From the IMG/VR virus record IMGVR_UViG_3300005521_000008, positions 1 through 30,063 of that record: DNA of 30,063 nt; one strand, given 5' to 3'. Shown piece after piece: positions 4,501 to 22,202 of this stretch (the first letter of the stretch is position 1; every line of letters starts with the position of its first letter). The translations under genes and the position numbers were made by a program. Origin of the DNA: a virus. Taxonomy: Duplodnaviria > Caudoviricetes. The notes below the pieces were generated by a model. That model was given only the letters and a program-made list of their open reading frames with translations. It searched no databases and had not been told where the DNA came from.

Positions 4501-6045
4501 TCAAAGACTTAGGTCCAAGGACAAAGATATTTCCCTTCCACCTGCTGAATATCCAGGTAAAATCTCAAAATTCCTGTCAAAAATGTCCCTAATTTGGAAC
4601 CCTATACGATATCTGGGTGTTAAATAGTAACCCATATTGAAGTTGAAACTTGATACATTATCAATAGGACTGCCATCAAAATCATTACCCTTATCAAACT
4701 GGCCTACATATGATATTAGATAGTCCCAACCAGGCAATGGTGAGCCACCATACCAGGATATTTTAGTTTTATATTTGGCTACTCTAATTCTATCTGAATC
4801 TGTATAACCAACCATCACATGTAATGCTCCATCATCTGAGAGTAAATGCCTCTGATACTTTATACCTTTGGATTCATATGATCCTGCATTTACATACATA
4901 TTATCTTGGAAGTTGTAATCAATACTTTCACTAAAATTATAATACCATGAAGTAAAATCTCCATATGATATTTGGAAACCTTCTCCTTTCTCAGGTTGTA
5001 AGTTAGGATTTCCTTTAACCCAATCATCACCATATCTCTCATATAAATTTGGTGCTCTAAAACTATTTGATATAGCCCACTTAACACCAGCAACATCAAA
5101 GCCAGCTCTTAATGTTATTTTATCCTCTTCATACCTAGCTCCAAAAGCAAATTGTTCTTGTGTATAATTTAAATAAGTTGCGAACCTCTGATCCCATGCA
5201 CCATTATATTCTTCTCTGTGTTGCTGTGCGCCTAGTAATAGGCCAGGTTTTACTTCTTTATTAGCATCTATAAAATACTTTTCACTAACTGCATTCCAAC
5301 CTGTATTGTGTTCAACATTATTACGACTATATCCTAGGGTAAGCCAATCACCTCTGATTGATGTGTCATACTTCCTTCCTTTTTGTGTGCAATCATTACT
5401 ACCACATGCATCATAATCATATTTGTAATCTTGCATTACTGAAATTACTTTCCATTGTTTCCATTCAGTTTTAGTTTTTAATGTAGTGTTCTCAAACCAA
5501 TCCTCTTCATTGTTATCTGTTTTAACAGAACCGTTGGAACCTTTATATCTAGAAACTTGAAACCAATCTGTTCCACCTATGAGGTAATTAAGTTTCTCAC
5601 CTGTCTTTAAAAAGAATTCTCTACCATCAAAGTTATCCTCTATAAGTATAGTGCCTGCCATTGAAGAACTACCATATAAAGAACTGTTAGGTCCGTGAAT
5701 TGTTTTGTATGATTGGAATGAAGGTAGATCAGTTCCAAAATCATACCAACCAGAGCCAGGATCATTAACAGGTATTCCGTTCCTATAGACTGCTGTATGT
5801 TTTACATCAGTTCCATTTGGACTATGTCCTGCAAATCCACCAACACCACCGGGTTGATATATTTTTGTTGAATCTAATCCTTCTATGACTGAATTGTCAT
5901 ATTCAGGTTGTGAATAACCTATGGATTCTTTTGCACCAACTACTATTATTTCTTCTAGATCAGAGGCCACCGCTTCAGATGCTATCATACATAAAAAAAG
6001 TATGCCCAAAATAATCAGAGCATACTTACCACTTCTCTTCTTCAT
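4501..6045 (-). CDS. TonB-dependent outer-membrane receptor (BtuB-like, compact)
   Basis: Signal peptide; TonB box-like EEIIVVG; plug motifs TAVYRNGIPVNDP and GPNSSLYGSSSMAGTILI; SFRAPNLYE and GNPNLQPEKG; C-terminal DIFDRNFE...GYSAGGREISLSLDLSL. Confidence 0.88.
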   Translation of the reverse strand: MKKRSGKYALIILGILFLCMIASEAVASDLEEIIVVGAKESIGYSQPEYDNSVIEGLDSTKIYQPGGVGGFAGHSPNGTDVKHTAVYRNGIPVNDPGSGWYDFGTDLPSFQSYKTIHGPNSSLYGSSSMAGTILIEDNFDGREFFLKTGEKLNYLIGGTDWFQVSRYKGSNGSVKTDNNEEDWFENTTLKTKTEWKQWKVISVMQDYKYDYDACGSNDCTQKGRKYDTSIRGDWLTLGYSRNNVEHNTGWNAVSEKYFIDANKEVKPGLLLGAQQHREEYNGAWDQRFATYLNYTQEQFAFGARYEEDKITLRAGFDVAGVKWAISNSFRAPNLYERYGDDWVKGNPNLQPEKGEGFQISYGDFTSWYYNFSESIDYNFQDNMYVNAGSYESKGIKYQRHLLSDDGALHVMVGYTDSDRIRVAKYKTKISWYGGSPLPGWDYLISYVGQFDKGNDFDGSPIDNVSSFNFNMGYYLTPRYRIGFQIRDIFDRNFEILPGYSAGGREISLSLDLSL

Positions 6046-8066: not shown

Positions 8067-8426
8067 TTATAAACCTAATTGATCAAATATTGCTTCATCA
8101 TATTTTACTGTAATCTCATCTCCTGCTGATACATCTTTCTCTATAACTAGAAAACATGAGACGCCATTTCTGAAATGATCTACTCTTGCATTGGGTGTAT
8201 TACTATGATTAACAAACGCTCCTAGTGCAGTACGCACCCACTCTTTCCGTTCCCAAGTTCTAGTTTCATCATCAAAGTTTTGCGTTAGAAAACTATGTGT
8301 CTCTCCTAACTCTGTATTAGCTGGTATGTCTGCCTTAGCAAACAAACCCTGTCCATCTATAGGACTGTCTTTTATATGTACTGTCGCTGGTAAAGGCCTA
8401 TAACCTCTACCCGTAAATTCACCCAT
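8067..8426 (-). CDS. SET-domain protein (putative lysine methyltransferase)
   Basis: SPIDGQGLFA, FVNHSNTPNA and AGDEITVKY. Confidence 0.88.
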   Translation of the reverse strand: MGEFTGRGYRPLPATVHIKDSPIDGQGLFAKADIPANTELGETHSFLTQNFDDETRTWERKEWVRTALGAFVNHSNTPNARVDHFRNGVSCFLVIEKDVSAGDEITVKYDEAIFDQLGL

Positions 8427-8733: not shown

Positions 8734-10403
8734 TTAGCTATTACAGAATAGTTCTGTCTCTTTTCAAACTTAACAACAGATCTAAACTTATCAAATAGTT
8801 GATCACCCTTATGTGAAATTACAAAGACATTTGTATCTTCGCCGATAGTGTTCAACAGTTGCATAACATAGTCTGTCCCATTAGTATCTAAACTACTATC
8901 AAAGACTTCATCTAATAATAATATGTTAGTGCTAGCGCTGTTCTTCATCTTAGCAATAGTTCTCCATGTAAACACCAGGGCTAAATCTATTCTTTGTTTT
9001 TCACCTTCACTAAAAGATGCGTAACTAAATTTATCTCTGTGCCTAGACTTAATTGTTTCTTTAAATGTTTCATCTAAGTCAAACTGAACGAAGAAATCCA
9101 TTGCAGCTAAATATTTATTAACAAGTTTATTTATTATTGGTAAGTATGCTTTTATTATTTTTGTTTTGATTCCGGTATCCTGTAACATTGCTTTGGCCAC
9201 ATCATAATAATGTTCATCTTCTGCTAATGTACTCTTATTACCTACCTTCGCTATTGTTTCTTTTGCTAATGTTTTTAACTTAGTTTTCTCTTCTGTAATG
9301 TTACCTGTCTTTTGTTCTGTATCATTAAGTTCTAACTGGAGTCTTTGAAGTATCCTTTGTTGAGTAATGATCTCATTATTAGTACTCATAATTACAGCGT
9401 CTAAGTCTTGAACCTGCTTAACAAGTTTCTCGACGTCGCTATACTGCGTATCCAGATCTGTTAGAGCCTTTTCAAGTTCTGAGATCTTAGTCTGATCTCT
9501 TTCTGTCATTAATTTTTTATGATCGTGCTCTATACCTTGCTGGCATGTAGGACATTCGTCTGTATTATGAAAGAAGTCTAAGTCTCTTCTGTGTTTAGTA
9601 ACTTGGGCTTCAAACTTTGTTCTAAAAGTTTCAAGTTGTCTTTTCTTTTCTTCAGGAGTCCCAAGCGCCGACTTCTCCTCTGTGTATCTGCTGACTTCTT
9701 CAGTAGCCGTCTCGATCGTTTCATCTGTTTCCTTAATAGATTTTTGTATTTCAATTACCTTAGAAGACTTATCATCTTCTAATGTTTTAATGTATTGTTC
9801 TTGTAGTGTGGCCTTTTGTTTGGCTACATCTATTTCGCCTTCAATAATTCTTTTTTCATTTTCTAATTGAACTAATTTTGTCTTTAGCACAGAATTCATA
9901 CTTGTAAATATACTTATGTCTAATATGTCTTCAATTATCTCACGCCTCGCTCCTAAATGTAACTGCATAAAAGGAGTAAAAGAAGCACTACCTAACATCA
10001 CAATCTGTGTAAATGATTTGTAATTTAGTTTAAGAATGTTCTCTTCTAAATACTTTTGGAAATCTCTGATGTTGGCATTCTTATCTAACTTCTCACCATT
10101 AATTTCTATCTCAAAAATTCTAGGTTGTAAACCTCTCTTGATACAATAGTTTTTACTACCTATCTGAAAGTTAATATCTACTCTAAGGTTCTTACCATTA
10201 ATAGTATTTATTAATTGTGGTTTGGATACATTCCTAAAAGGCTTATTAAATAAAGCAAATGTCAAAGCATCTAATAATGTAGACTTGCCTGTGCCGTTCT
10301 CACCTACAATTAATGTACTAGGAGACTTTGTAAAATCAATCTCTGTATAGGCATTACCTGTAGATAGAAAGTTCTTCCATCTAATATTTTTAAATTGTAT
10401 CAT
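8730..10403 (-). CDS. gp46: gp46 recombination endonuclease subunit (Rad50/SbcC-like ATPase)
   Basis: GENGTGKS, zinc hook CPTC, FSEGE signature, LLDEVFD and ISH; follows gp47. Confidence 0.96.
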   Translation of the reverse strand: MIQFKNIRWKNFLSTGNAYTEIDFTKSPSTLIVGENGTGKSTLLDALTFALFNKPFRNVSKPQLINTINGKNLRVDINFQIGSKNYCIKRGLQPRIFEIEINGEKLDKNANIRDFQKYLEENILKLNYKSFTQIVMLGSASFTPFMQLHLGARREIIEDILDISIFTSMNSVLKTKLVQLENEKRIIEGEIDVAKQKATLQEQYIKTLEDDKSSKVIEIQKSIKETDETIETATEEVSRYTEEKSALGTPEEKKRQLETFRTKFEAQVTKHRRDLDFFHNTDECPTCQQGIEHDHKKLMTERDQTKISELEKALTDLDTQYSDVEKLVKQVQDLDAVIMSTNNEIITQQRILQRLQLELNDTEQKTGNITEEKTKLKTLAKETIAKVGNKSTLAEDEHYYDVAKAMLQDTGIKTKIIKAYLPIINKLVNKYLAAMDFFVQFDLDETFKETIKSRHRDKFSYASFSEGEKQRIDLALVFTWRTIAKMKNSASTNILLLDEVFDSSLDTNGTDYVMQLLNTIGEDTNVFVISHKGDQLFDKFRSVVKFEKRQNYSVIAK

Positions 10404-11461
10404 ATAGTATCTTGTGCCTCGATGTAGAGGCTCTGTAATAAGTTTTTAATTCTTTGCTTATCTAAATCTGTTTCAACAACATCAACATACTCTTTCAATA
10501 AGGTCATTGTATCTTCCAAGTCTATGTCTTCACCTAAGGCTTCGTCTTCAAACTCTGAGAAGTCTTCTATAATTTTAAGATCAATTAAGTTGTAGGTGTA
10601 TAACTTGTCTACAAAAGAATCAAACTTTTTAAAGTCTGTCTTCTTATTTACAATAAGCTTAACACTACAACCGCTGATATCATTAAAATCGAAATTGCTA
10701 ATGGCATTGACACCTTCGAATGTTGAATCGTCGTAATAAATTTTGTGGAAGATTCTATACGGGTTGTTGACATATTCCAAATCTCTTTTAACTGTGTCAT
10801 AAATGGCGAAACCTCTAGGGTCATTGTAGTCTGACCAAGTAATTTCATAAGGGTTGCCCATGTATGTAATATTGCCTCTGCTATGACGATGATGAAAGTG
10901 GCCACTAACCACAAGGTCAAAATCAATAAAAGCGTCAGTATCCATGCCATGCATATTAGGCATTCCAGGAAGCATGTCGTAACCTGCGAATTCAAAATGT
11001 CCGAAGCAAGTCTTTGCATCAGTCTTTGAAATTTTGGCCATAGTCCTGTCATAATTTTCTCCACATATCCATGGAAGGTATAGTACCTTCTCTCTATCTA
11101 ACATTATCTCTGTTGGTTCTTGATATAATGTTATGTTATTATATTCTCCTAACAATAAATCAGGAGAGTTTACATCATTTGTATTCTTAAAATAGGTATC
11201 ATGATTACCAGGAATCATATGTATATCTATACCAAACTTTGCTGCCTCACTAAAGAAATATTTTTTACAAGACTGAAGTGTATTAAAATTAATATACTTC
11301 CTTCTATCAAATACATCACCTAGGTGGCATACAGTTTTAATGTCATTGTCAACCAAGTAAGGAAAGAATATATTCTTGTAAAACCTAGCAAAGAATTTAT
11401 CAAATGCTAGACTATCACTCCTGGCACCAAAATGGGTGTCTGTAACTAAGGCTACTTTCAT
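10400..11461 (-). CDS. gp47: gp47 recombination endonuclease subunit (Mre11/SbcD-like)
   Basis: DTHFG, GDVFDRRK, GNHD, GH and SGHFH phosphoesterase motifs. Confidence 0.96.
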   Translation of the reverse strand: MKVALVTDTHFGARSDSLAFDKFFARFYKNIFFPYLVDNDIKTVCHLGDVFDRRKYINFNTLQSCKKYFFSEAAKFGIDIHMIPGNHDTYFKNTNDVNSPDLLLGEYNNITLYQEPTEIMLDREKVLYLPWICGENYDRTMAKISKTDAKTCFGHFEFAGYDMLPGMPNMHGMDTDAFIDFDLVVSGHFHHRHSRGNITYMGNPYEITWSDYNDPRGFAIYDTVKRDLEYVNNPYRIFHKIYYDDSTFEGVNAISNFDFNDISGCSVKLIVNKKTDFKKFDSFVDKLYTYNLIDLKIIEDFSEFEDEALGEDIDLEDTMTLLKEYVDVVETDLDKQRIKNLLQSLYIEAQDTI

Positions 11462-11464
11462 AAG

Positions 11465-11932
11465 TTAGCCTTCGTAAATAGCGCTATTGGCCCCGTGTTC
11501 TCTAACTTCGCAACTGACACAGAAACATCTGCCGTCAGTTTGTTTACTTACTAAATCGTTTGCAAAGTGAAAAGCTTGCTCTGCAAACTTCTCACATCCA
11601 ACACCATTCATAACTACTACTTCTGTTAATCCTTTTTCTTCTAGCTTTAAAAAATCTTGTAATGCAGGATCGTTTTTATCAACTGCATGTTTATGATCAA
11701 AGTTATTTTTTAACCATGCTTTTAAGTCCTTCAAGCCTCCAAAATCCACTACCCAATTCTTATTATCTAAACGATCACAACCAAATTTAAAACTAAACGA
11801 CAAAGCGTAACCATGTAGTAAACTACAATGACTGTGCGTTGCTGCATGTTGTCTAAAAATTGCTGATAAGCCTTCTTCGTGGCCATATGTTTTCGTTGAA
11901 TAATATTTGTAATCTATGTATGGGTCTGTCAT
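11465..11932 (-). CDS. queD: 6-carboxy-5,6,7,8-tetrahydropterin synthase (QueD/PTPS)
   Basis: HCSLLHGY, WVVDFGGLK, FDH, GCEKFAE and EVREHGANSAIY. Start moved to 11932 (ATGA overlap with the glycosyltransferase stop). Confidence 0.9.
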   Translation of the reverse strand: MTDPYIDYKYYSTKTYGHEEGLSAIFRQHAATHSHCSLLHGYALSFSFKFGCDRLDNKNWVVDFGGLKDLKAWLKNNFDHKHAVDKNDPALQDFLKLEEKGLTEVVVMNGVGCEKFAEQAFHFANDLVSKQTDGRCFCVSCEVREHGANSAIYEG

Positions 11933-12990
11933 ATAAGCTCCTTGTATAAGTTTGTTGCAGTGAAGTATTGTTCTTCTAGCCTGTTTCTGTTTTCTATAAT
12001 ACATGTTTGTATCTCTGGTGACTGAAAATTCTCCATCATAGTTTCTATCTTGCCTATTAAGATAGTCTTATTGTCCTGATATCCTTTCCAGTCTATTGTA
12101 AATTGAGTTGGGTATTTAAATAAGTCATCATACATTTCTATATAAGATAACCTATTAGGAACAAGAGGCATACCACCTGCTCTTAGTATTTCATAACAGC
12201 TAATTCCTAATGTCTCTTGTAAATTTGCTGAGAATACCATCTTAGATTGTTCTAATAATTTATTATACTCTACTTTTGTAAGATTGTAATCATTACAATT
12301 AATGAATTCGTATTGTGGCAGTTCTGCTTTTAAGTCATTAAATATATTTAACTGTTTCTCAGGTGCGTTTCTGTGAGGGAATAGGATTATATCTTCTTTC
12401 TCTATTCTATCTGGCCTTATATAGTTACCTAAGTATTCCATTGGCCAACCAGTTCTAACAATTTTACTATTTAAATATTCTTCGTCTGAAGGATCAAAGA
12501 ATGTAGTAGCAAACATTTCTATATGAAACTGACTAGCAAAATAATTTCTATCAATGGCATCAAAGAAAGCTAGTTCTGTGTGCCTAACCCAAGGTTTGTC
12601 TCCAATCTTTCTACCTAAAAAGTCTTGTGGATCATAACTTCCTGCATGCCACAGTCCATGTATTGTTGCATCTATCTGAAATAGATCTAACATGTATTTA
12701 AGATTAAGAATACCTGGATGCCAAGCATCTGCAAATACAAAATGATCTCCATTTGTTATTTGTCCTTTGTTAAAGTATTCTGCTAATAGTTTTACTTGTT
12801 CAGCTTTATAAATGTTCGTGCCTGCAAAGTTTAAGAAGGCACCAGGTGTAGTACAATCTGCTATACCTTCTGGTCCTTCAATAACTGTAATGTCTTGGCC
12901 AGTCTCATCTGCTATTTGCTGAGGAAATTCTGTTTTCCATTGAGCAGTATATCTAGTCTCGACATATTCTAAATCAACTAAATAAATCAT
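11929..12990 (-). CDS. GT-B (GT4-like) glycosyltransferase
   Basis: C-terminal domain with FPHRNAPEK and the E-x7-E motif ETLGISCYE followed by GGMPLVPNRLSYIEM; N-terminal DAWHPG and GLWHAGSYDPQD. Confidence 0.8.
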   Translation of the reverse strand: MIYLVDLEYVETRYTAQWKTEFPQQIADETGQDITVIEGPEGIADCTTPGAFLNFAGTNIYKAEQVKLLAEYFNKGQITNGDHFVFADAWHPGILNLKYMLDLFQIDATIHGLWHAGSYDPQDFLGRKIGDKPWVRHTELAFFDAIDRNYFASQFHIEMFATTFFDPSDEEYLNSKIVRTGWPMEYLGNYIRPDRIEKEDIILFPHRNAPEKQLNIFNDLKAELPQYEFINCNDYNLTKVEYNKLLEQSKMVFSANLQETLGISCYEILRAGGMPLVPNRLSYIEMYDDLFKYPTQFTIDWKGYQDNKTILIGKIETMMENFQSPEIQTCIIENRNRLEEQYFTATNLYKELI

Positions 12991-13360
12991 TCTCTAGAAT
13001 GCCTCCGTTTTCATTATCCTCATACACTTCAACTTTGACTGCACGATTAGGATAATGTTCTTCTATATAATTTATAAGATCTTCTGCTATCATTTCACAT
13101 GAACGGTGGTCTAGTTGTAGTTCGCCTTCACCATATTGTTTTTCTAATTCTCTCTTAAATTGTATGAATTCTACATCACGATCGTTATGTGTGACTCCTA
13201 GTGTTACATAAAAATAGAACATGTGTCTATGAGGATAACCTAAGAAACTTACATCGTCCCAATCACCTGTTGCATATTTAGGATCTTTATCTGCTCCTGG
13301 AAACATGTGAACACCTTCCCTTTGGAAGGATACTTTAATAAACCTTTTACCAACTGACAT
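12974..13360 (-). CDS. QueD-paralog T-fold protein, DpdL-like (putative CDG decarboxylase)
   Basis: LGYPHRHMF matches LxxxHRHxF; also HNDRDVEFIQFK, SCEMIAE and VEVYEDNENG (T-fold C-terminus); lies inside the deazaguanine cluster. Confidence 0.75.
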   Translation of the reverse strand: MSVGKRFIKVSFQREGVHMFPGADKDPKYATGDWDDVSFLGYPHRHMFYFYVTLGVTHNDRDVEFIQFKRELEKQYGEGELQLDHRSCEMIAEDLINYIEEHYPNRAVKVEVYEDNENGGILENDLFS

Positions 13361-13417
13361 ATAAAACTAACTCCATTATACAAAATGATATCATCATTAT
13401 AAAAACTAACCAACTGT

Positions 13418-14686
13418 TCATCCAAATAACTCCTCTAAACTTGCAGGTGCTTCTTTACCTACTGCCATTGACTTCATTGCACCACCTAAATATTGGTTGT
13501 TCTCCCAATAAGTAAAGTCTTCTTTATTTTTAACATTATATAGGTTCCTGAACTGGCCATCAAGTTTCATCTTACCCGTAAACTTAATTAAGGTTTCCTC
13601 ATCTAACATCATCTGTTCTAGATGTTTCATAAAGTTTTGTATGGACATTAGTATAAATGCTGTCCTAACATATATCCACTTGTTCAAATCGCCATATTTA
13701 TCTTTTGCTTTCATGCTAGGTGTATTCATAATAGAGTGAAATTCGTCTAAATCTACACCTAAATTGATTGTTTCTTGCACATTATTGTACATTTCTCGAT
13801 ACAAATTAGACATCTTTCTGCTAAACTTAGTTGTACCCTGTCCCATGTAATATAAACCTGTCTCAACCGCCCTGCTGTGTGTAGTAGAGTCATATGATAT
13901 GTCTACATTGTCATATAAACCGTTCTGACAGAACACTAAGTAAGGAATAATACGCCTGATACTTCCTACACCTAATATATGTAAGTGCATTTTATCTTGT
14001 GGCCAAGTTTTAGCTATCTCACTAGCAATAAAAGCTCTTTTCACATCTTCTAATGGTCCTGTGCCCAAGGCAGCTGCACCCATAGCTACTCCACCAATTC
14101 TGTTGTGCCATTCATTAGGTATCTCACCAAGTAAACACTCATACCATCTTAGATATGTATCAACATCATTGCCTTGTAGAATAATATATGGTTTGCAACT
14201 GCTCTCTTTCTTATCAAAAATTTCTAATTGTCTTTTAACATTACGGCCTGTCTTTTTAGCAAGCTCTTCATAGTTCTCATAATCAAAGAACCTCTGTTTA
14301 ACATCATTTCTATCTGATCTTTCACCTGTAAGTATAACAGGTATCTCATCAAAGCACATACCCACATCTGCCCACTCTGCTTGGTTCTCATATACTTTGT
14401 CTTTTAATTCATCTGTAATTGTCATGCCTTGTGTAACAATCTGTAGGCCACCTGAGTCTGCGTGGATACTATGTACATGATCTTTATATGCTGTAAACCT
14501 TTCGCCAAAACTTGACTCTGTATGTGCATTATATAACATAGAAAACTTGTGACTATGCACTCCTGTTACTAATTTATCTAGTAACATATTAATAATTTGT
14601 GAATTCGTTTCGTCTTTGGCTATACCAGGATTACTAAACCTCATATAAGAGGTTCCTGATACTACATAATCTAATTTTCTATCCAT
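13418..14686 (-). CDS. dpdA: TGT-fold guanine transglycosylase, DpdA-like (predicted DNA 7-deazaguanine insertion)
   Basis: TGT motifs in order: ADSGGLQ, CFDEIP, ILQG, GGVAMG, HLHILGVG and SYDSTT. It lacks the CxCxxC zinc site of bacterial tRNA TGT and clusters with folE/queD/queE. Confidence 0.75.
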   Translation of the reverse strand: MDRKLDYVVSGTSYMRFSNPGIAKDETNSQIINMLLDKLVTGVHSHKFSMLYNAHTESSFGERFTAYKDHVHSIHADSGGLQIVTQGMTITDELKDKVYENQAEWADVGMCFDEIPVILTGERSDRNDVKQRFFDYENYEELAKKTGRNVKRQLEIFDKKESSCKPYIILQGNDVDTYLRWYECLLGEIPNEWHNRIGGVAMGAAALGTGPLEDVKRAFIASEIAKTWPQDKMHLHILGVGSIRRIIPYLVFCQNGLYDNVDISYDSTTHSRAVETGLYYMGQGTTKFSRKMSNLYREMYNNVQETINLGVDLDEFHSIMNTPSMKAKDKYGDLNKWIYVRTAFILMSIQNFMKHLEQMMLDEETLIKFTGKMKLDGQFRNLYNVKNKEDFTYWENNQYLGGAMKSMAVGKEAPASLEELFG

Positions 14687-14816
14687 ACATACTCCCTACT
14701 ATAAATCCTAGAGCAAATATAAACCAATCAAATATGAAGTGCATAATAAAAGACAATGCAAATATTTCTTTCCAATGTACTTTACATATATCTAACCATT
14801 CTAATATCTTATTCAT
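14679..14816 (-). CDS. 45-aa hydrophobic membrane peptide (MNKILEWLDICKVHWKEIFALSFIMHFIFDWFIFALGFIVGSMYG)
   Basis: Manually translated; ATGA overlap with the upstream stop and 8-nt overlap with the dpdA start; fills the gap exactly. Confidence 0.7.
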   Translation of the reverse strand: MNKILEWLDICKVHWKEIFALSFIMHFIFDWFIFALGFIVGSMYG

Positions 14817-15319
14817 GACTTTAATATTTCAATTAACATATTTGCCTGTGCTGTTGCATCGTCTAACGCATTGTGATTATTTGCTTTAGGTAATCTTTTA
14901 TCTAGCACATTCATTAATGTTCTTAAACAAGATATATCCCAAAATTTCCAAGGGATAAACATGTCCAAGGCTCTATAGGCACTTTCTAAAATAACAACAT
15001 CAAAATTGGCACCATAACCCCATATAGGAATGGACTCTTTTCCATACCATATAGTGAATTTATCTATTGCCTCTTGTAGTGGGACTGGATTTTGTTGCCA
15101 AGCTTGTTGTGCCTCTTTACTTTGTTCACCCCACCATTTTATTGTGTCAGGATCTATATGTAGTCCTGCTTCCTTACAAGTTCTACCATCTACATTTATA
15201 TAGAAGGTGTCAGTAATTTCCATATCCTCTACAAGTACTGCTCCAATAGAAACAATACACGCATTAGCATGAGTGCTTAATGTTTCTAAGTCAACGACTA
15301 CTTGTTTAGTAGTGTCCAT
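14813..15319 (-). CDS. DEDDh 3'-5' exonuclease (DexA/DUF5051-like)
   Basis: VDLET, WGYGANFD and HNALDDA. Confidence 0.88.
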   Translation of the reverse strand: MDTTKQVVVDLETLSTHANACIVSIGAVLVEDMEITDTFYINVDGRTCKEAGLHIDPDTIKWWGEQSKEAQQAWQQNPVPLQEAIDKFTIWYGKESIPIWGYGANFDVVILESAYRALDMFIPWKFWDISCLRTLMNVLDKRLPKANNHNALDDATAQANMLIEILKS

Positions 15320-15989
15320 TTCCTATTTCCTGTAATTTAATATTATCCATAAACTCTTCTTTTAATGAAGGGTTCGTTTTAAGTTCGCCTTTAAGAACAG
15401 TTGTCTGTGTAGAACTATTACTTGCCATAATGCCTCTGTTCTCACAGCAACCATGTCTTGCTTTAATGTAAACACCTACTGCTTTAGACTTTGTAAGTTT
15501 CTCAATTCTATATGCTATCATCTCACAAAGTTCTTCTTGTAAATGTCCTCTTGAAGCTAAGTGCTGTGCCACTCTAGAATATTTTGAAAGTCCTATAACT
15601 TCTTCTCCTGGCATACATGCAATATAAGCTGTGCCTGAAACAGGTTGGTGATGGTGTGAACACATACTTTTTAATTCTGTTCTAACAACAATCAACTGAT
15701 CGTATTGTCCATCATTAGGGAATGCTGTAATCCTAGGATCTTTCCTATACCTGCCTCCCATAATTTCATTTACATACATCTTTGCCAAACGGTGTGCTGT
15801 TCCCATACTGTTTGGATCATTTGTTGTGTCTATAATAAGACTCTGTAGAACTGCTTCAAACTTTTCTTCTAGTTCTTCAATAAGATCTGCAGTTTCACCT
15901 GGCATTATATACTTTGAAATATTATCAGAAGCAAAATACCTATGGCCATCTACTTCTAACCGTTGTTTAATTTTATCACTTGTACTCAT
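15306..15989 (-). CDS. folE: GTP cyclohydrolase I
   Basis: TAHRLAKMY, SMCSHHHQP, IGLSKYSR, LQEEL and HGCCENRG. Confidence 0.95.
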   Translation of the reverse strand: MSTSDKIKQRLEVDGHRYFASDNISKYIMPGETADLIEELEEKFEAVLQSLIIDTTNDPNSMGTAHRLAKMYVNEIMGGRYRKDPRITAFPNDGQYDQLIVVRTELKSMCSHHHQPVSGTAYIACMPGEEVIGLSKYSRVAQHLASRGHLQEELCEMIAYRIEKLTKSKAVGVYIKARHGCCENRGIMASNSSTQTTVLKGELKTNPSLKEEFMDNIKLQEIGNGHY

Positions 15990-16102
15990 TTGCTTAACCT
16001 CTCCTTTGCTTCTTTCATTAATCTCATAGTTTTAATATGATTAGAATGGTGTATCCTTTTCTTTTTAAAATCTTTATTTTTGTTCTTGCATGTTATTGCC
16101 AT
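15986..16102 (-). CDS. 38-aa basic peptide (MAITCKNKNKDFKKKRIHHSNHIKTMRLMKEAKERLSK)
   Basis: Manually translated; TAATG overlap with the PRTase stop and ATGA overlap with the folE start. Confidence 0.6.
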   Translation of the reverse strand: MAITCKNKNKDFKKKRIHHSNHIKTMRLMKEAKERLSK

Positions 16103-16518
16103 TAAATTTTCTCCCATGGATATATTAACCATCTATTCTCATTATAGAGTCTCTGTCCTACAAAATCAAGCTCTAAATCTGCTTTTTGGTGTAATACAGC
16201 CCAACGACTATCAGGTATAATTTCTTTTATCTGTGTAATAGTTTTACCACTATCACAAATATCATCTACGAATAGAGTCCCGTTTAAATTCTTGTTAAAA
16301 TTGTTAGCTTTAATTGTATCTTTGAAATGTCCGTCTCTGGTTTGCCATTCTAGTGGTTCAAAGCCAGCGCCTAGCCTGTGTGATAACATAACACCAGGTA
16401 TTAGGCCTCCTCTAGATATACCTACTATTTTATCTATAGGTGTTTCTATCTTTTCATGAACGATATCTAACAATTCATCAATATCATTCCAAGTTACATG
16501 TATAAATTCATTCATCAT
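16102..16518 (-). CDS. Type I phosphoribosyltransferase (xanthine-guanine PRTase-like)
   Basis: IVGISRGGLIPG, PRPP-binding loop FVDDICDSGKT and C-terminal WLIYPWE. Confidence 0.9.
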   Translation of the reverse strand: MMNEFIHVTWNDIDELLDIVHEKIETPIDKIVGISRGGLIPGVMLSHRLGAGFEPLEWQTRDGHFKDTIKANNFNKNLNGTLFVDDICDSGKTITQIKEIIPDSRWAVLHQKADLELDFVGQRLYNENRWLIYPWEKI

Positions 16519-16724
16519 AATTTAATTGCCAATAATAAAAATATGCAGAGCTGTATAAGTATAACTAGGAATAACTCTACTGCTAATATAGTATGATACC
16601 AAATCCACCTAGTCTTATAAGCATTATCAATACTTAAATCATCTGGATCTGGATCGTTCCATTGTTCAACATCTTGCTTTGGGTGTTTACCCCATAAGAC
16701 TTCTTTAATATTTTTCCATTTCAT
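16515..16724 (-). CDS. Small protein with a C-terminal transmembrane helix
   Basis: Coupled to its neighbours (TAAATG and ATGA); hydrophobic ILAVELFLVILIQLCIFLLLA. Confidence 0.75.
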   Translation of the reverse strand: MKWKNIKEVLWGKHPKQDVEQWNDPDPDDLSIDNAYKTRWIWYHTILAVELFLVILIQLCIFLLLAIKL

Positions 16725-17603
16725 TTAAGTACCCCAAGCGTTGCCAAATAAATCAATATGTAATCGAGGGCTAAATTTATATCCTGTTTTCATACAAGCT
16801 TCTGCTACGCCTTTAGCAGTTAATGTTTGTTGTTCTAATGTTGCGCCTTCAGGCATACAGTAAACAGAATCTATCTGTACCCCATGATCTTGATAGGTCA
16901 TATAAAATTTATTAACCTCATCAAAATCTGTTATGTCTCTAACGACAAATTTATTATATAAATGACTATTGAAAACTTGGTTCATTGAAATTAAAACCTC
17001 AGGTATTAACGCATCTTCATTTGTCTCACCACTAAGACTTAACTTAGGTGATGTGCTCCAAGTTACATGTATGTCTTTGTTATTTGTATTAAAGAAATTA
17101 ATTAACTCAGGTTTAACTTCTTGTGTTCCATTAGTTTCAAATGTTACATTCTTTAATCCTACTTCCATACACATTTCTATTAGTTCAGGCCAACACCTTT
17201 GCCAACCTAATAAAGGTTCACCACCTGTAATAACTAAATGTATGTCATTGTTCTCATCAAACCTACCTCTAGGAAGTAACCCAACAATATGTTCAAACAC
17301 CTGATCAACTGTTCTTGTCATTTGTAAATGTTTATATTTCATAGCCCAACTAGCAGAACTATCACAACCAACAGGTGTAACAGGTAATTGATCTATGCTT
17401 GTATAAGCGTCTGGATTGTTTTTATCCCCTAAAGGGTCTGTCATATATGGCATTTCTTCTACAGGAATGAGATTGCCTCTCTCCTGTCCAAATCCTCTGC
17501 ATTCAAAGTTACATCCAAAGACTCTTAAGAACACACTAGGAACTCCTACGAATCTACCTTCGCCTTGAATTGAATAAAATGCTTCACTATATCTCAGTTT
17601 CAT
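16725..17603 (-). CDS. queE: 7-carboxy-7-deazaguanine synthase (radical SAM)
   Basis: EAFYSIQGEG, FLRVFGCNFEC...GCDS, ITGGEP, FETNGT, SPKL, MPEG and SPRLH. Confidence 0.93.
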   Translation of the reverse strand: MKLRYSEAFYSIQGEGRFVGVPSVFLRVFGCNFECRGFGQERGNLIPVEEMPYMTDPLGDKNNPDAYTSIDQLPVTPVGCDSSASWAMKYKHLQMTRTVDQVFEHIVGLLPRGRFDENNDIHLVITGGEPLLGWQRCWPELIEMCMEVGLKNVTFETNGTQEVKPELINFFNTNNKDIHVTWSTSPKLSLSGETNEDALIPEVLISMNQVFNSHLYNKFVVRDITDFDEVNKFYMTYQDHGVQIDSVYCMPEGATLEQQTLTAKGVAEACMKTGYKFSPRLHIDLFGNAWGT

Positions 17604-17611
17604 ATTATGAC

Positions 17612-17640
17612 ATTATATATAAGAGTTAACCAATGTTCAA
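17612..17640 (-). promoter_or_regulatory. Sigma70-like promoter TTGAAC-N17-TATAAT for the deazaguanine operon
   Basis: Fills the 37-bp gap between the gp55 stop and the queE ATG; perfect -10 and 17-bp spacer. Confidence 0.7.
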
Positions 17641-18276
17641 CTACTTTTTAGCGCTTTTGGTTGCCCTTTTCTTTGCTTCTTCCTTTTCCTTAGCAGCTGC
17701 TTCCTCTGCTTTAATTTTTTCGTCCAAATATTTTGGCCTACGCTTAACTACCTTCTTACCTTCATTAGCTTTATCCGCTGCTGCGTTATCTGCCTCTGCC
17801 TGTTCAATCATATTTCTCATATAACTAAGGTAATCATTAGAGTGCTGGCTTCCGTCTGCACTTTGTTCTAATATTTGATCTATGTCCAAGCTCTTAATAT
17901 ATTTGAACTTGGTTTCCATTTGTCTCTTCTCTTTTTGGATACGCCTGATAAAAGCGTAGTATGTGATTTGTGTAAAGTATGCAAAAGGATTTCTTGATTT
18001 TGCTGGATCAAAGTTATCCATATATGTAAGACAGTTTTCAATACCATCTAAAATCATTTCATCTCTAAATGTATAATTTACAAAGTTTGATTTATATGCT
18101 AAGTGGTTTGCTATTTTAACAAAGCACTCACCAATATAATTTGTTACCTGTGGTCTATCCTCGCCACTCTCTTCTGCTTCAATTCTTAGCTCCCTATACG
18201 CACTTATCTTTGCAAGGAATTCCTTGTTGTCTATATAGTGTGCTGAATTGGGATCTCTCCTTACTCTTTTAGCCAT
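17641..18276 (-). CDS. gp55: gp55 late-transcription sigma factor
   Basis: HYIDNKEF, YIGECFVKIANHL, NFVNYTFRDEMILDGIENCL and NPFAYFTQITYYAFIRRIQKEK. Confidence 0.96.
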   Translation of the reverse strand: MAKRVRRDPNSAHYIDNKEFLAKISAYRELRIEAEESGEDRPQVTNYIGECFVKIANHLAYKSNFVNYTFRDEMILDGIENCLTYMDNFDPAKSRNPFAYFTQITYYAFIRRIQKEKRQMETKFKYIKSLDIDQILEQSADGSQHSNDYLSYMRNMIEQAEADNAAADKANEGKKVVKRRPKYLDEKIKAEEAAAKEKEEAKKRATKSAKK

Positions 18277-21460: not shown

Positions 21461-21781
21461 TTAAAATCCCACACTTTCTCCACAACCACAAGCGTTAGAT
21501 TCCATAGGGTTCCAAAATGTGAACGCCTCATTAAGTCCATCTACTTGCCATCCAATTACCGTGCCGTCTAAGTAACCTGCTGACATAGGACAAATCCACA
21601 TCTTGAATTTGCCAAAGTCTAGTTCCTCATCCTGCTCAGTTTTTGGTCCATCAGCATAGTTGAAGTCATACTTAAAGCCTGCACATCCACCTCCTAACAA
21701 AGCAAGTCTAATACCAGGTGATTGTTTAACTTCTAATCTTTTAATCACTTGATCCATTGCTTCATCAGTCCAGTCTATCAT
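21461..21781 (-). CDS. iscA: A-type Fe-S carrier (IscA/HesB family)
   Basis: GGGCAGFKY and C-terminal CGCGES; start moved to MIDWT (GGAGG SD). Confidence 0.9.
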   Translation of the reverse strand: MIDWTDEAMDQVIKRLEVKQSPGIRLALLGGGCAGFKYDFNYADGPKTEQDEELDFGKFKMWICPMSAGYLDGTVIGWQVDGLNEAFTFWNPMESNACGCGESVGF

Positions 21782-22202
21782 CAGGGCCTCCGTTATGTCT
21801 TCTAAGTTTCTTTTCTTCCCAATCACTTATCGCTTTTGATATACTATCTTCTGCTAATACAGAACAATGTATCTTAATAGGCGGTAAGTCTAATGCTTTT
21901 GCTATATCTTTATCTTTAATAAGTTTAGCTTGTTCTATTGTTATACCTTTTAGCATATCAACAAACATACTAGAGCTAGCAATAGCACTACCACAACCAT
22001 AAGTCTTAAATTTTACATCTTCAATTATATCTGTATCGGGATTAAGTTTTAAATCTAACTTCATCACATCTCCACAAGCTGGCGCTCCAGTCATTCCTGT
22101 AGCAACATTTGGATCTTTAGGATCAAATCTTCCAACTCCGTGTTCCAGTGGTTTGTTCAAAACATCATTGAATCTTTCTACTACTTCTTTTGAATATGCC
22201 AT
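21765..22202 (-). CDS. iscU: Fe-S scaffold IscU
   Basis: GAPACGDVM, FKTYGCGSAIASSS and LPPIKIHCS (an LPPVK-like HscA-binding motif). Confidence 0.95.
   Translation of the reverse strand: MAYSKEVVERFNDVLNKPLEHGVGRFDPKDPNVATGMTGAPACGDVMKLDLKLNPDTDIIEDVKFKTYGCGSAIASSSMFVDMLKGITIEQAKLIKDKDIAKALDLPPIKIHCSVLAEDSISKAISDWEEKKLRRHNGGPDDRLD

Follow-up and report, generated by a model that had tools for sequence, protein, structure and literature searches.

Among described phage systems that write 7-deazaguanines into DNA, one of the closest to the locus considered here is that of Cellulophaga phage phiST, in which FolE, QueD, QueE, DpdL and the short transglycosylase DpdA3 (259 aa) fully replace dG with 7-deaza-2'-deoxyguanosine (dDG), with no glycosyltransferase of the kind described below (PMC10516641). 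A second relative is the preQ0/preQ1 type of Vibrio phages nt-1 and VH7D, whose DpdA2 enzymes have demonstrated activity on DNA (PMC6884629, PMC10516641), prefer preQ0 and preQ1 and are reported to act at a low rate (PMC10516641). Here we describe an eleven-gene cluster in a 30,063-nucleotide stretch of viral DNA (IMG/VR record IMGVR_UViG_3300005521_000008), called the window below, in which a GT4-type glycosyltransferase (GT) is built in among deazaguanine genes. A sequence-only reading had proposed that this phage inserts a deazaguanine into its DNA and that the GT adds a sugar to it. The gene linkage behind that proposal is supported in every comparative test, and the sugar on the DNA base is still inferred.

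The broader architecture has been recorded before. Data S1 of Cui et al. (2023) lists PA5oct, ACP17, BUDD and BCSR5 with DpdA and DpdL, without QueC and with the product not determined, and the word "glycosyltransferase" occurs nowhere in the supplement text nor in the parts of the results and discussion covered (PMC10516641). Each of these four clusters has the gene set of the window, including the GT, which thus appears to be the overlooked part of a known QueC-less arrangement. When dpdA and dpdL of ACP17 or phiST were expressed in E. coli no dDG was formed, and the authors allow for unknown required enzymes (PMC10516641). PA5oct also resists five restriction enzymes in a pattern that points to modified G (PMC12191111).

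Compared with phiST, the window shares FolE, QueD, QueE and a DpdL with conserved pocket residues, and neither cluster contains QueC; however, its transglycosylase (TGT) is a DpdA2-like protein of 422 aa rather than a DpdA3, and only the window cluster has a built-in GT4 enzyme and phosphoribosyltransferase (PRTase). With nt-1 and VH7D it shares the DpdA2 subfamily, but in those phages QueC adjoins dpdA2, there is no GT and the pocket motif differs. More generally, preQ0, preQ1 and G+ systems carry QueC (and QueF, ArcS or Gat) in the cluster, whereas the window cluster has none of these. The module is real, intact and widespread, and is a variant of the DpdL-type deazaguanine system; that it yields an undescribed glycosylated purine in DNA stands at about even odds. 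To our knowledge, the known glycosylated DNA bases are pyrimidines. A literature search, with most subscription literature outside its reach, turned up no DNA in which a deazaguanine is described as glycosylated.

The glycosyltransferase, the transglycosylase and DpdL

The GT itself has no family match, and its homologues match PF00534. Its model (predicted local distance difference test score, pLDDT, 91.9) adopts a GT-B fold, with a BshA-type GT4 enzyme as a Foldseek match (E 1e-9) and the GT4 enzymes BshA and SPS as nearest structures in a VIA comparison (Z up to 25.2, over 316 residues). Residues H115, R207, K212 and the pair E259-x7-E267 are invariant in 62 sequences, with deviations in some distant members; we take them to be the His at the end of beta4, the Arg/Lys pair that contacts the donor phosphate and the E-x7-E motif. 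Compared with the 85%-identical relative L015, changed codons are mostly synonymous (87 vs 51). The family is large, as all 8,000 scored candidates passed.

The TGT matches nt-1 DpdA2 (YP_008125322) at 34% identity (E 5e-51), which places it in the DpdA2 subfamily, and VH7D DpdA2 at 38%, each over about 293 aa; it is 33% identical to ACP17 DpdA2 over its length. It has no Pfam match, and with its model (pLDDT 92.6) all 50 Foldseek matches listed are TGTs. D77, D113, Q171 and D266 are invariant in 93 sequences and are presumably the equivalents of Z. mobilis D102, D156, Q203 and D280, an assumed mapping that also places the two aspartates at the 2-amino face and the pocket. The pocket motif is GAAALG in the window and BUCT-ZZ01 enzymes, GAASLG in ACP17, SGAAIG in nt-1 and ADTCIG in the QueF-bearing VH7D and pf16. 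BLASTP found no match between phiST DpdA3 and the window TGT at E 0.1, a profile from four short DpdA3 proteins had no match in the GT loci, and the DpdA2-like profile gave chance matches only against PDB sequences. Two TGT families occur in GT loci: 38 loci have the DpdA2-like type and 53 a longer type that includes Paride_0115, and the two are related by profile at 98% probability; the PA5oct member of the longer family was filed under DpdA3 by Cui et al. (PMC10516641). At one further locus (L181:2521-5090), dpdL and the GT flank a 291-aa protein that by inspection has TGT-like motifs of another type.

The window DpdL is 49% identical to that of ACP17, carries the LxxxHRHxF motif, and retains the pocket residues that Cui et al. 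list, which are invariant in 53 DpdL sequences. Its phiST homologue, CGPG_00067, is the founding DpdL, proposed to act as a decarboxylase on the free base 7-carboxy-7-deazaguanine (CDG) (PMC10516641). The nearest named Atlas cluster is PTPS (score 0.94, 24% of members); the DpdL profile gave chance matches only against PDB and no significant match to a profile of the window QueD. Two other proteins occur near dpdL in relatives. A 185-188-aa open reading frame (ORF) between dpdA and dpdL was considered as a tailoring enzyme and rejected, as it is instead a DenV-like pyrimidine-dimer glycosylase (PF03013, below cut-off), found in 27 of the 103 viral loci introduced below (e.g. L015:9098-9655) and not in the window cluster. 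A 175-aa protein (L016:7512-8039) occurs in 59 of the 103 loci and accompanies dpdL in the majority of jumbo-type clusters and in ACP17; it was not found in the window's clade and bears a weak structural likeness, below threshold, to QueE barrels.

Linkage across phages and bacteria

Our viral set comprises 103 loci fetched by their GT (70 groups at 90% identity), drawn from the 80 top-scoring hits of each scan, which had several hundred. DpdL is encoded in 99 of them, and the four without it have at most 303 bp of upstream sequence. Among GT loci with at least 4 kb upstream, all 76 have dpdL and 75 have a TGT (55 of 56 groups at 90% identity). The association also holds in the reverse direction: the GT is present in all 46 of the 80 DpdL loci that have 3 kb on each side, and in all 47 of the 80 DpdA2-like loci that have 2.5 kb on each side, with QueC in none of either.

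Cultured phages show the same pattern. Paride, Phosso, ACP17, X1, BUCT-ZZ01 (which carries two GTs) and BCSR5 combine the GT with DpdL and a long TGT, and none of these six complete genomes has a QueC match over the cut-off. The partners are kept despite shuffled gene order and differing TGT families, and in ACP17 the GT sits between the published dpdA2 and dpdL. Conversely, the GT is absent genome-wide from all six phages that have DpdL with a short DpdA3 (phiST, MA9V-3, Ahp1, D479, RHph_I1_18 and Bakedbeans, with MA9V-3 assigned by inspection) and from all four that have DpdA2 with an adjacent QueC (nt-1, VH7D, Ps15 and pf16).

The bacterial set, 39 loci from GTDB contigs, extends this distribution: 29 have a long TGT and 24 have dpdL. 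Some are evidently phage contigs binned into metagenome-assembled genomes, and others come from isolates, where integrases or resolvases adjoin them. A small membrane protein occurs in 14 of the 39, and two of three tested gave a weak match, just under the cut-off, to Vut_1, a preQ0-transporter family. Nine long loci hold the TGT, the transporter and the GT without dpdL; searching their whole assemblies located dpdL in three and not in six, which may be incomplete. Because those six assemblies keep the transglycosylase without dpdL, the TGT, and not the pterin enzymes, is the steadiest partner of the GT. The six are alphaproteobacterial (L152, L153, L155, L157, L158 and L160), and dpdL-less cassettes occur in Pelagibacterium, Devosia, Ochrobactrum, Rhizobiales and Azospirillum, near integrase or resolvase genes. 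The combination of TGT, Vut_1-like transporter and GT is a candidate bacterial DNA-modification island.

The co-occurrence check suggested by the sequence-only reading therefore came out in its favour: dpdL and a TGT accompany the GT through several TGT families and gene orders, and hydroxymethyl-pyrimidine genes do not. No thymidylate-synthase-family gene was found in G001 (a 99%-complete relative of the window phage), ACP17, X1, BUCT-ZZ01 or BCSR5, and among 16 GT genomes nine have none and seven a single full-length match of the ThyA type. The T4 control gave a further 58-bit match, at the place where we take its hydroxymethylase to lie. A search for TET/JBP genes had matches in none of the 16, and its controls were likewise without a match.

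A proposed sugar on inserted deazaguanine and its rivals

The reading that we favour, to which we give a little better than an even chance, is that DpdA places 7-deazaguanine at some sites, where the base is then glycosylated by the GT, most likely at N2. FolE, QueD and QueE, the CDG-synthesis set of Dpd systems, all have family matches in the window and would convert GTP to CDG by established chemistry; DpdL, by family membership and proposed activity, would decarboxylate free CDG to 7-deazaguanine; the TGT would exchange this base for G at a subset of sites in replicated phage DNA; and the GT, judging from its fold and motifs, may carry out a retaining transfer from a nucleoside diphosphate sugar to the inserted base, its presumed acceptor. 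The PRTase likely recycles the released guanine. We prefer transfer after insertion, as the TGT retains both aspartates at the 2-amino face and its pocket motif is small and apolar. The exocyclic N2 amine is favoured as acceptor over C7 because the enzyme HuiG attaches N-acetylglucosamine (GlcNAc) to the 2-amino group of a C7-substituted 7-deazaguanine derivative (PMC7439116), and because the dpdL-less bacterial cassettes, which suit an acceptor position independent of an unsubstituted C7, would meet C7-substituted host precursors; neither argument is direct. HuiG, given as PF13439 (bioRxiv 10.64898/2026.04.15.718813), resembles our GT in being clustered with folE, queD and queE homologues, but it acts on a free, QueC-derived base without dpdA (PMC7439116).

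Such a cap would likely serve as a shield against restriction enzymes and against glycosylases directed at bare 7-deazaguanine. A selective reason is offered by Vibrio glycosylases: of 22 tested, 17 restricted the dDG phage VP1, and phages modified with preQ0 or G+ were spared by most (bioRxiv 10.1101/2025.10.29.685425). As to the sugar, genes for nucleotide-sugar enzymes (UDP-sugar dehydrogenase, DegT-like, Gfo/Idh and Zn-dehydrogenase) are clustered with the GT in 37 of the 70 groups, and the Paride cluster has an epimerase-like gene. BCSR5 and X1 have a gene resembling PAPS reductase beside the GT, and BCSR5 also has a PIG-L deacetylase by Pfam (L115:8282-10120; L031:7332-8944). The BCSR5 and X1 neighbours suggest transfer of GlcNAc followed by tailoring.

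A bolder form of the proposal is that a two-gene core of TGT and GT4 enzyme writes the first known sugar-bearing purine, an N2- or C7-glycosyl-7-deazaguanine, across thousands of aquatic T4-like and jumbo phages and alphaproteobacterial mobile cassettes, with sugars diversified by neighbouring nucleotide-sugar enzymes, as a counter to anti-deazaguanine glycosylases. This we hold tentatively, at somewhat less than an even chance. If the sugar-bearing base predicted above is real, it would add a new class of DNA base and a new family of DNA-modifying GTs with at least 8,000 sequence clusters; the GT might then be what was lacking when reconstitution from ACP17 genes failed, and the modified G of therapeutic phages of the PA5oct/Paride type, so far unexplained, would gain an identity.

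Several observations weigh against a sugar on the inserted base. The fold comparison ranks T4 alpha-glucosyltransferase (AGT; Z 17.5) and the phage HY126 GT (Z 18.5) below the small-molecule enzymes SPS (Z 25.2), BshA (Z 23.8) and a pterin glucosyltransferase (5zer, Z 19.6), and the fold search does not separate DNA-acting from small-molecule GTs; nor does the GT profile match T4 AGT. The GT is acidic (pI 4.7, net charge -22; family median 5.7). The DpdA2-like family (5.8) and T4 AGT (6.1) are acidic likewise, and global pI, tried as a marker of DNA binding, failed to separate DNA-binding from other proteins. The viral set is biased to near relatives, and several of its loci are one contig fetched twice. 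One long locus with the GT and dpdL (L078) has no TGT within 8 kb, the Phosso TGT lies about 170 kb from its GT, and in the PhiXhv-12 group a divergent GT (26% identity) occurs without dpdL and with a TGT-like gene 94 kb away. The activity of DpdL on CDG is a proposal in the literature as well, and no measured product was found for any GT-bearing phage. As a side observation, the PhiXhv-12 GT lies near genes for a GNAT protein, a glutamine amidotransferase, a deacetylase and an oxidoreductase (L116:322-8749), possibly a separate hypermodification pathway.

The last point of this kind concerns restriction sites. ACGT occurs at 5 sites in the window (10 counting both strands) against 122 expected, and 10 times against 170 expected in close relatives, which looks like continued avoidance of a host restriction site. 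Because ACGT is nearly absent from the window, protection by modification cannot be global; occupancy is probably partial, since such avoidance continues and DpdA2 enzymes are reported to be slow (PMC10516641). Here too the system differs from phiST, which swaps all of its G (PMC10516641), whereas the window phage still avoids a G-containing palindrome. ACGT avoidance was rejected as a signature of the module, being clade-specific and missing from Paride (136 observed, 150 expected), ACP17 (146, 156) and X1 (180, 172); other GT phages avoid AGCT, GCGC or GGCC.

Of the competing explanations, the one that survives best, although we think it unlikely, is that the DNA carries plain dDG or the corresponding CDG nucleoside (dCDG), as in phiST, and that the GT, a passenger under shared regulation, has another target such as a surface polysaccharide or protein. 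phiST makes dDG without such a GT, GT4 enzymes act mostly on sugars, lipids and proteins, and passengers do occur in the operon (the exonuclease, the membrane peptides and, in relatives, the DenV-like glycosylase). Those passengers are clade-restricted, however; the GT keeps company with dpdL and a TGT whatever the TGT family, host or gene order, and it persists even in three-gene bacterial cassettes. A rather unlikely second alternative is that the GT modifies a free compound of the pathway, either an intermediate of pterin type or free deazaguanine, to give a metabolite or storage form kept out of DNA. The fold matches include tetrahydrobiopterin glucosyltransferases (9v0l by Foldseek, and 5zer), the acidity of the GT was counted for a small free acceptor, and two free N2-glycosides of deazaguanine are known, huimycin and dapiramicin (PMC7439116). 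Against this, the TGT is near-constant in long viral loci and is retained in bacterial cassettes without adjacent folE, queD, queE or dpdL, and secondary-metabolite deazapurine clusters are without dpdA (bioRxiv 10.64898/2026.04.15.718813).

The sugar might instead be added before insertion into DNA, either because DpdA inserts an already glycosylated base or because a deazaguanine nucleotide made by the PRTase is glycosylated and then polymerised. The PRTase is present in 68 of the 103 viral loci, many GT clusters adjoin a DNA polymerase gene, and in tubercidin clusters a PRTase acts on CDG without QueC (bioRxiv 10.64898/2026.04.15.718813). Yet neither the bacterial cassettes nor the clusters fetched from ACP17, X1 and BCSR5 include a PRTase gene, and the conserved aspartates and GAAALG pocket of the TGT argue against a bulky base substrate; we consider this route improbable.

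The absence of QueC needs a qualification that opens a fourth explanation. For the cluster and the window the sequence-only reading was right: QueC has no match there, in a search whose control was positive in all 14 genomes tried, and Pfam assigns none of the 38 ORFs scanned to a QueF or amidotransferase family. Because the record is the window itself, with an estimated completeness of 17%, absence from the genome cannot be inferred from it, so the genomes of relatives, including G001, were used for whole-genome questions. "QueC-less" does not carry over to them intact, as four of six clade relatives searched (G001 and three of five further members) encode a divergent QueC-like PP-loop protein with SGGxDS and a Cys4 zinc motif between nrdA and nrdB (e.g. 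L033:1015-1698; also L126, L127 and L129). This protein, or a QueC of the host, might supply preQ0, so that the DNA would contain ordinary dPreQ0 irrespective of the GT, as the preference of DpdA2 for preQ0 and preQ1 would allow (PMC10516641). The protein scores 34.5 against a cut-off of 150, which does not exclude function because the QueC of Ps15, adjacent to dpdA, also scores low (30.8 bits). However, it has neither the YGQ nor the VPxRN motif of the nt-1, VH7D and pf16 QueC proteins, it lies about 53 kb from the cluster in G001, and singleton phage QueC-like proteins have been judged unrelated in function (PMC6884629). QueF was not found in G001 (VH7D control positive), none of the six complete cultured GT phages has QueC over the cut-off, and DpdL would be pointless if the product were dPreQ0; we regard this explanation as quite improbable. 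Finally, that the GT is an analogue of T4 AGT acting on hydroxymethyl-pyrimidines made by genes elsewhere is very improbable, for although the two share a GT-B fold, the slot between gp55 and gp47 and the logic of capping a modified base with sugar, they have no detectable sequence similarity, and the genomes checked have no hydroxymethylase, their thymidylate-synthase matches, where present, being of the ThyA type.

The operon, its other genes and the phage

All eleven ORFs lie on the minus strand in the order first proposed, from queE to queD (Table 1), and the measured junctions bear out the claim that all but one abut or overlap: queE meets the 69-aa peptide gene at 0 bp, overlaps of 4, 31, 4, 14, 4 and 8 bp follow down to dpdA, a 57-bp gap separates dpdA from dpdL, and the last two overlaps are 17 and 4 bp. 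The likely queD start is 11932 rather than 12004, given an ATGA overlap with the GT stop, an upstream AAGGAG and a length of 147-157 aa in relatives. Because only 3 bp separate queD from gp47, the transcription unit probably runs on into gp47 and gp46. The promoter-like site before queE is recurrent, with a TTGA..TATAAT counterpart in all eight relatives inspected. The claim of a single promoter is not shown, because across the region such sites are no more frequent than chance predicts (30, against 30.7 in shuffled sequence) and the 57-bp gap contains another 10/12 site (13403-13375).

Table 1. Coordinates of the cluster, its promoter-like site and flanking genes in the window
Feature	Position	Strand	Basis
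gp47 (flank), 3 bp downstream of queD	10400..11461	-	phrog_100 E 2e-112
QueD, 6-carboxytetrahydropterin (CPH4) synthase, CxxxHGY, 155 aa from likely start	11465..11932	-	PF01242 E 3e-12, phrog_2389 E 2e-38
GT-B fold, GT4-type glycosyltransferase, 353 aa	11929..12990	-	model, fold matches, conserved motifs
DpdL, QueD-paralogous predicted T-fold protein, LGYPHRHMF, 128 aa	12974..13360	-	37% to phiST CGPG_00067, E 2e-17
DpdA2-like DNA guanine transglycosylase, 422 aa	13418..14686	-	homology to DpdA2, TGT-fold model
45-aa predicted membrane peptide	14679..14816	-	10/27 close loci; position varies in relatives
Rv2179c-like 3'-5' exonuclease, 168 aa	14813..15319	-	PF16473 E 6e-41
FolE, GTP cyclohydrolase I, 227 aa	15306..15989	-	PF01227 E 9e-39
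48-aa basic ORF	15986..16132	-	only in 2 window-identical loci among 27 searched
Purine PRTase (xanthine/guanine PRT-like), 138 aa	16102..16518	-	PF00156 E 2e-6, NF006613 E 1e-13
69-aa predicted membrane peptide	16515..16724	-	no family match
QueE-like radical SAM enzyme (CDG synthase), 292 aa	16725..17603	-	phrog_2076 E 7e-51
Sigma70-type promoter-like site, TTGAAC-17-TATAAT, in 37-bp gp55/queE gap	17612..17640	-	10/12 match
gp55 late sigma factor (flank)	17641..18276	-	phrog_234 E 2e-56

Among the remaining genes, the QueE-like protein falls below the cut-off of the NCBIfam QueE models, and the PRTase likely salvages guanine or a deazaguanine. The 69-aa membrane peptide, present in 17 of 27 close loci and not in distant clusters, is a clade-restricted passenger, and the exonuclease, present in 31 of the 108 loci that were clustered, stands outside the conserved core. 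The 48-aa basic ORF is lineage-specific and possibly not a gene.

Family scans of its ORFs identify the window as a 30-kb piece of a T4-like myovirus (36% G+C) with tail sheath, tail tube, portal, prohead protease, scaffold and major capsid genes as well as UvsY, UvsW, gp55, gp47 and gp46; the cluster lies between gp55 and gp47, the slot of a-gt in the T4 genome. No tRNA genes were found in the window. Marine and seawater metagenomes contain nearly identical DNA: 14 of the 24 runs listed have at least half of the sequence words, and six of these are marked as possible sources. Four metatranscriptome runs share 0.05-0.13 of them; two of these gave 8 and 7 short contigs, some of which fall inside the GT, dpdL, dpdA, folE, PRTase and queD genes, which is no proof of transcription. 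The phage also carries a gene resembling TonB-dependent receptors (4501-6045), a SET-domain protein (8067-8426) and an IscA/IscU-like Fe-S assembly pair (21461-22202) that could serve QueE, and in some close relatives a Methyltransf_24 gene lies between gp55 and queE (L004:4429-5043).

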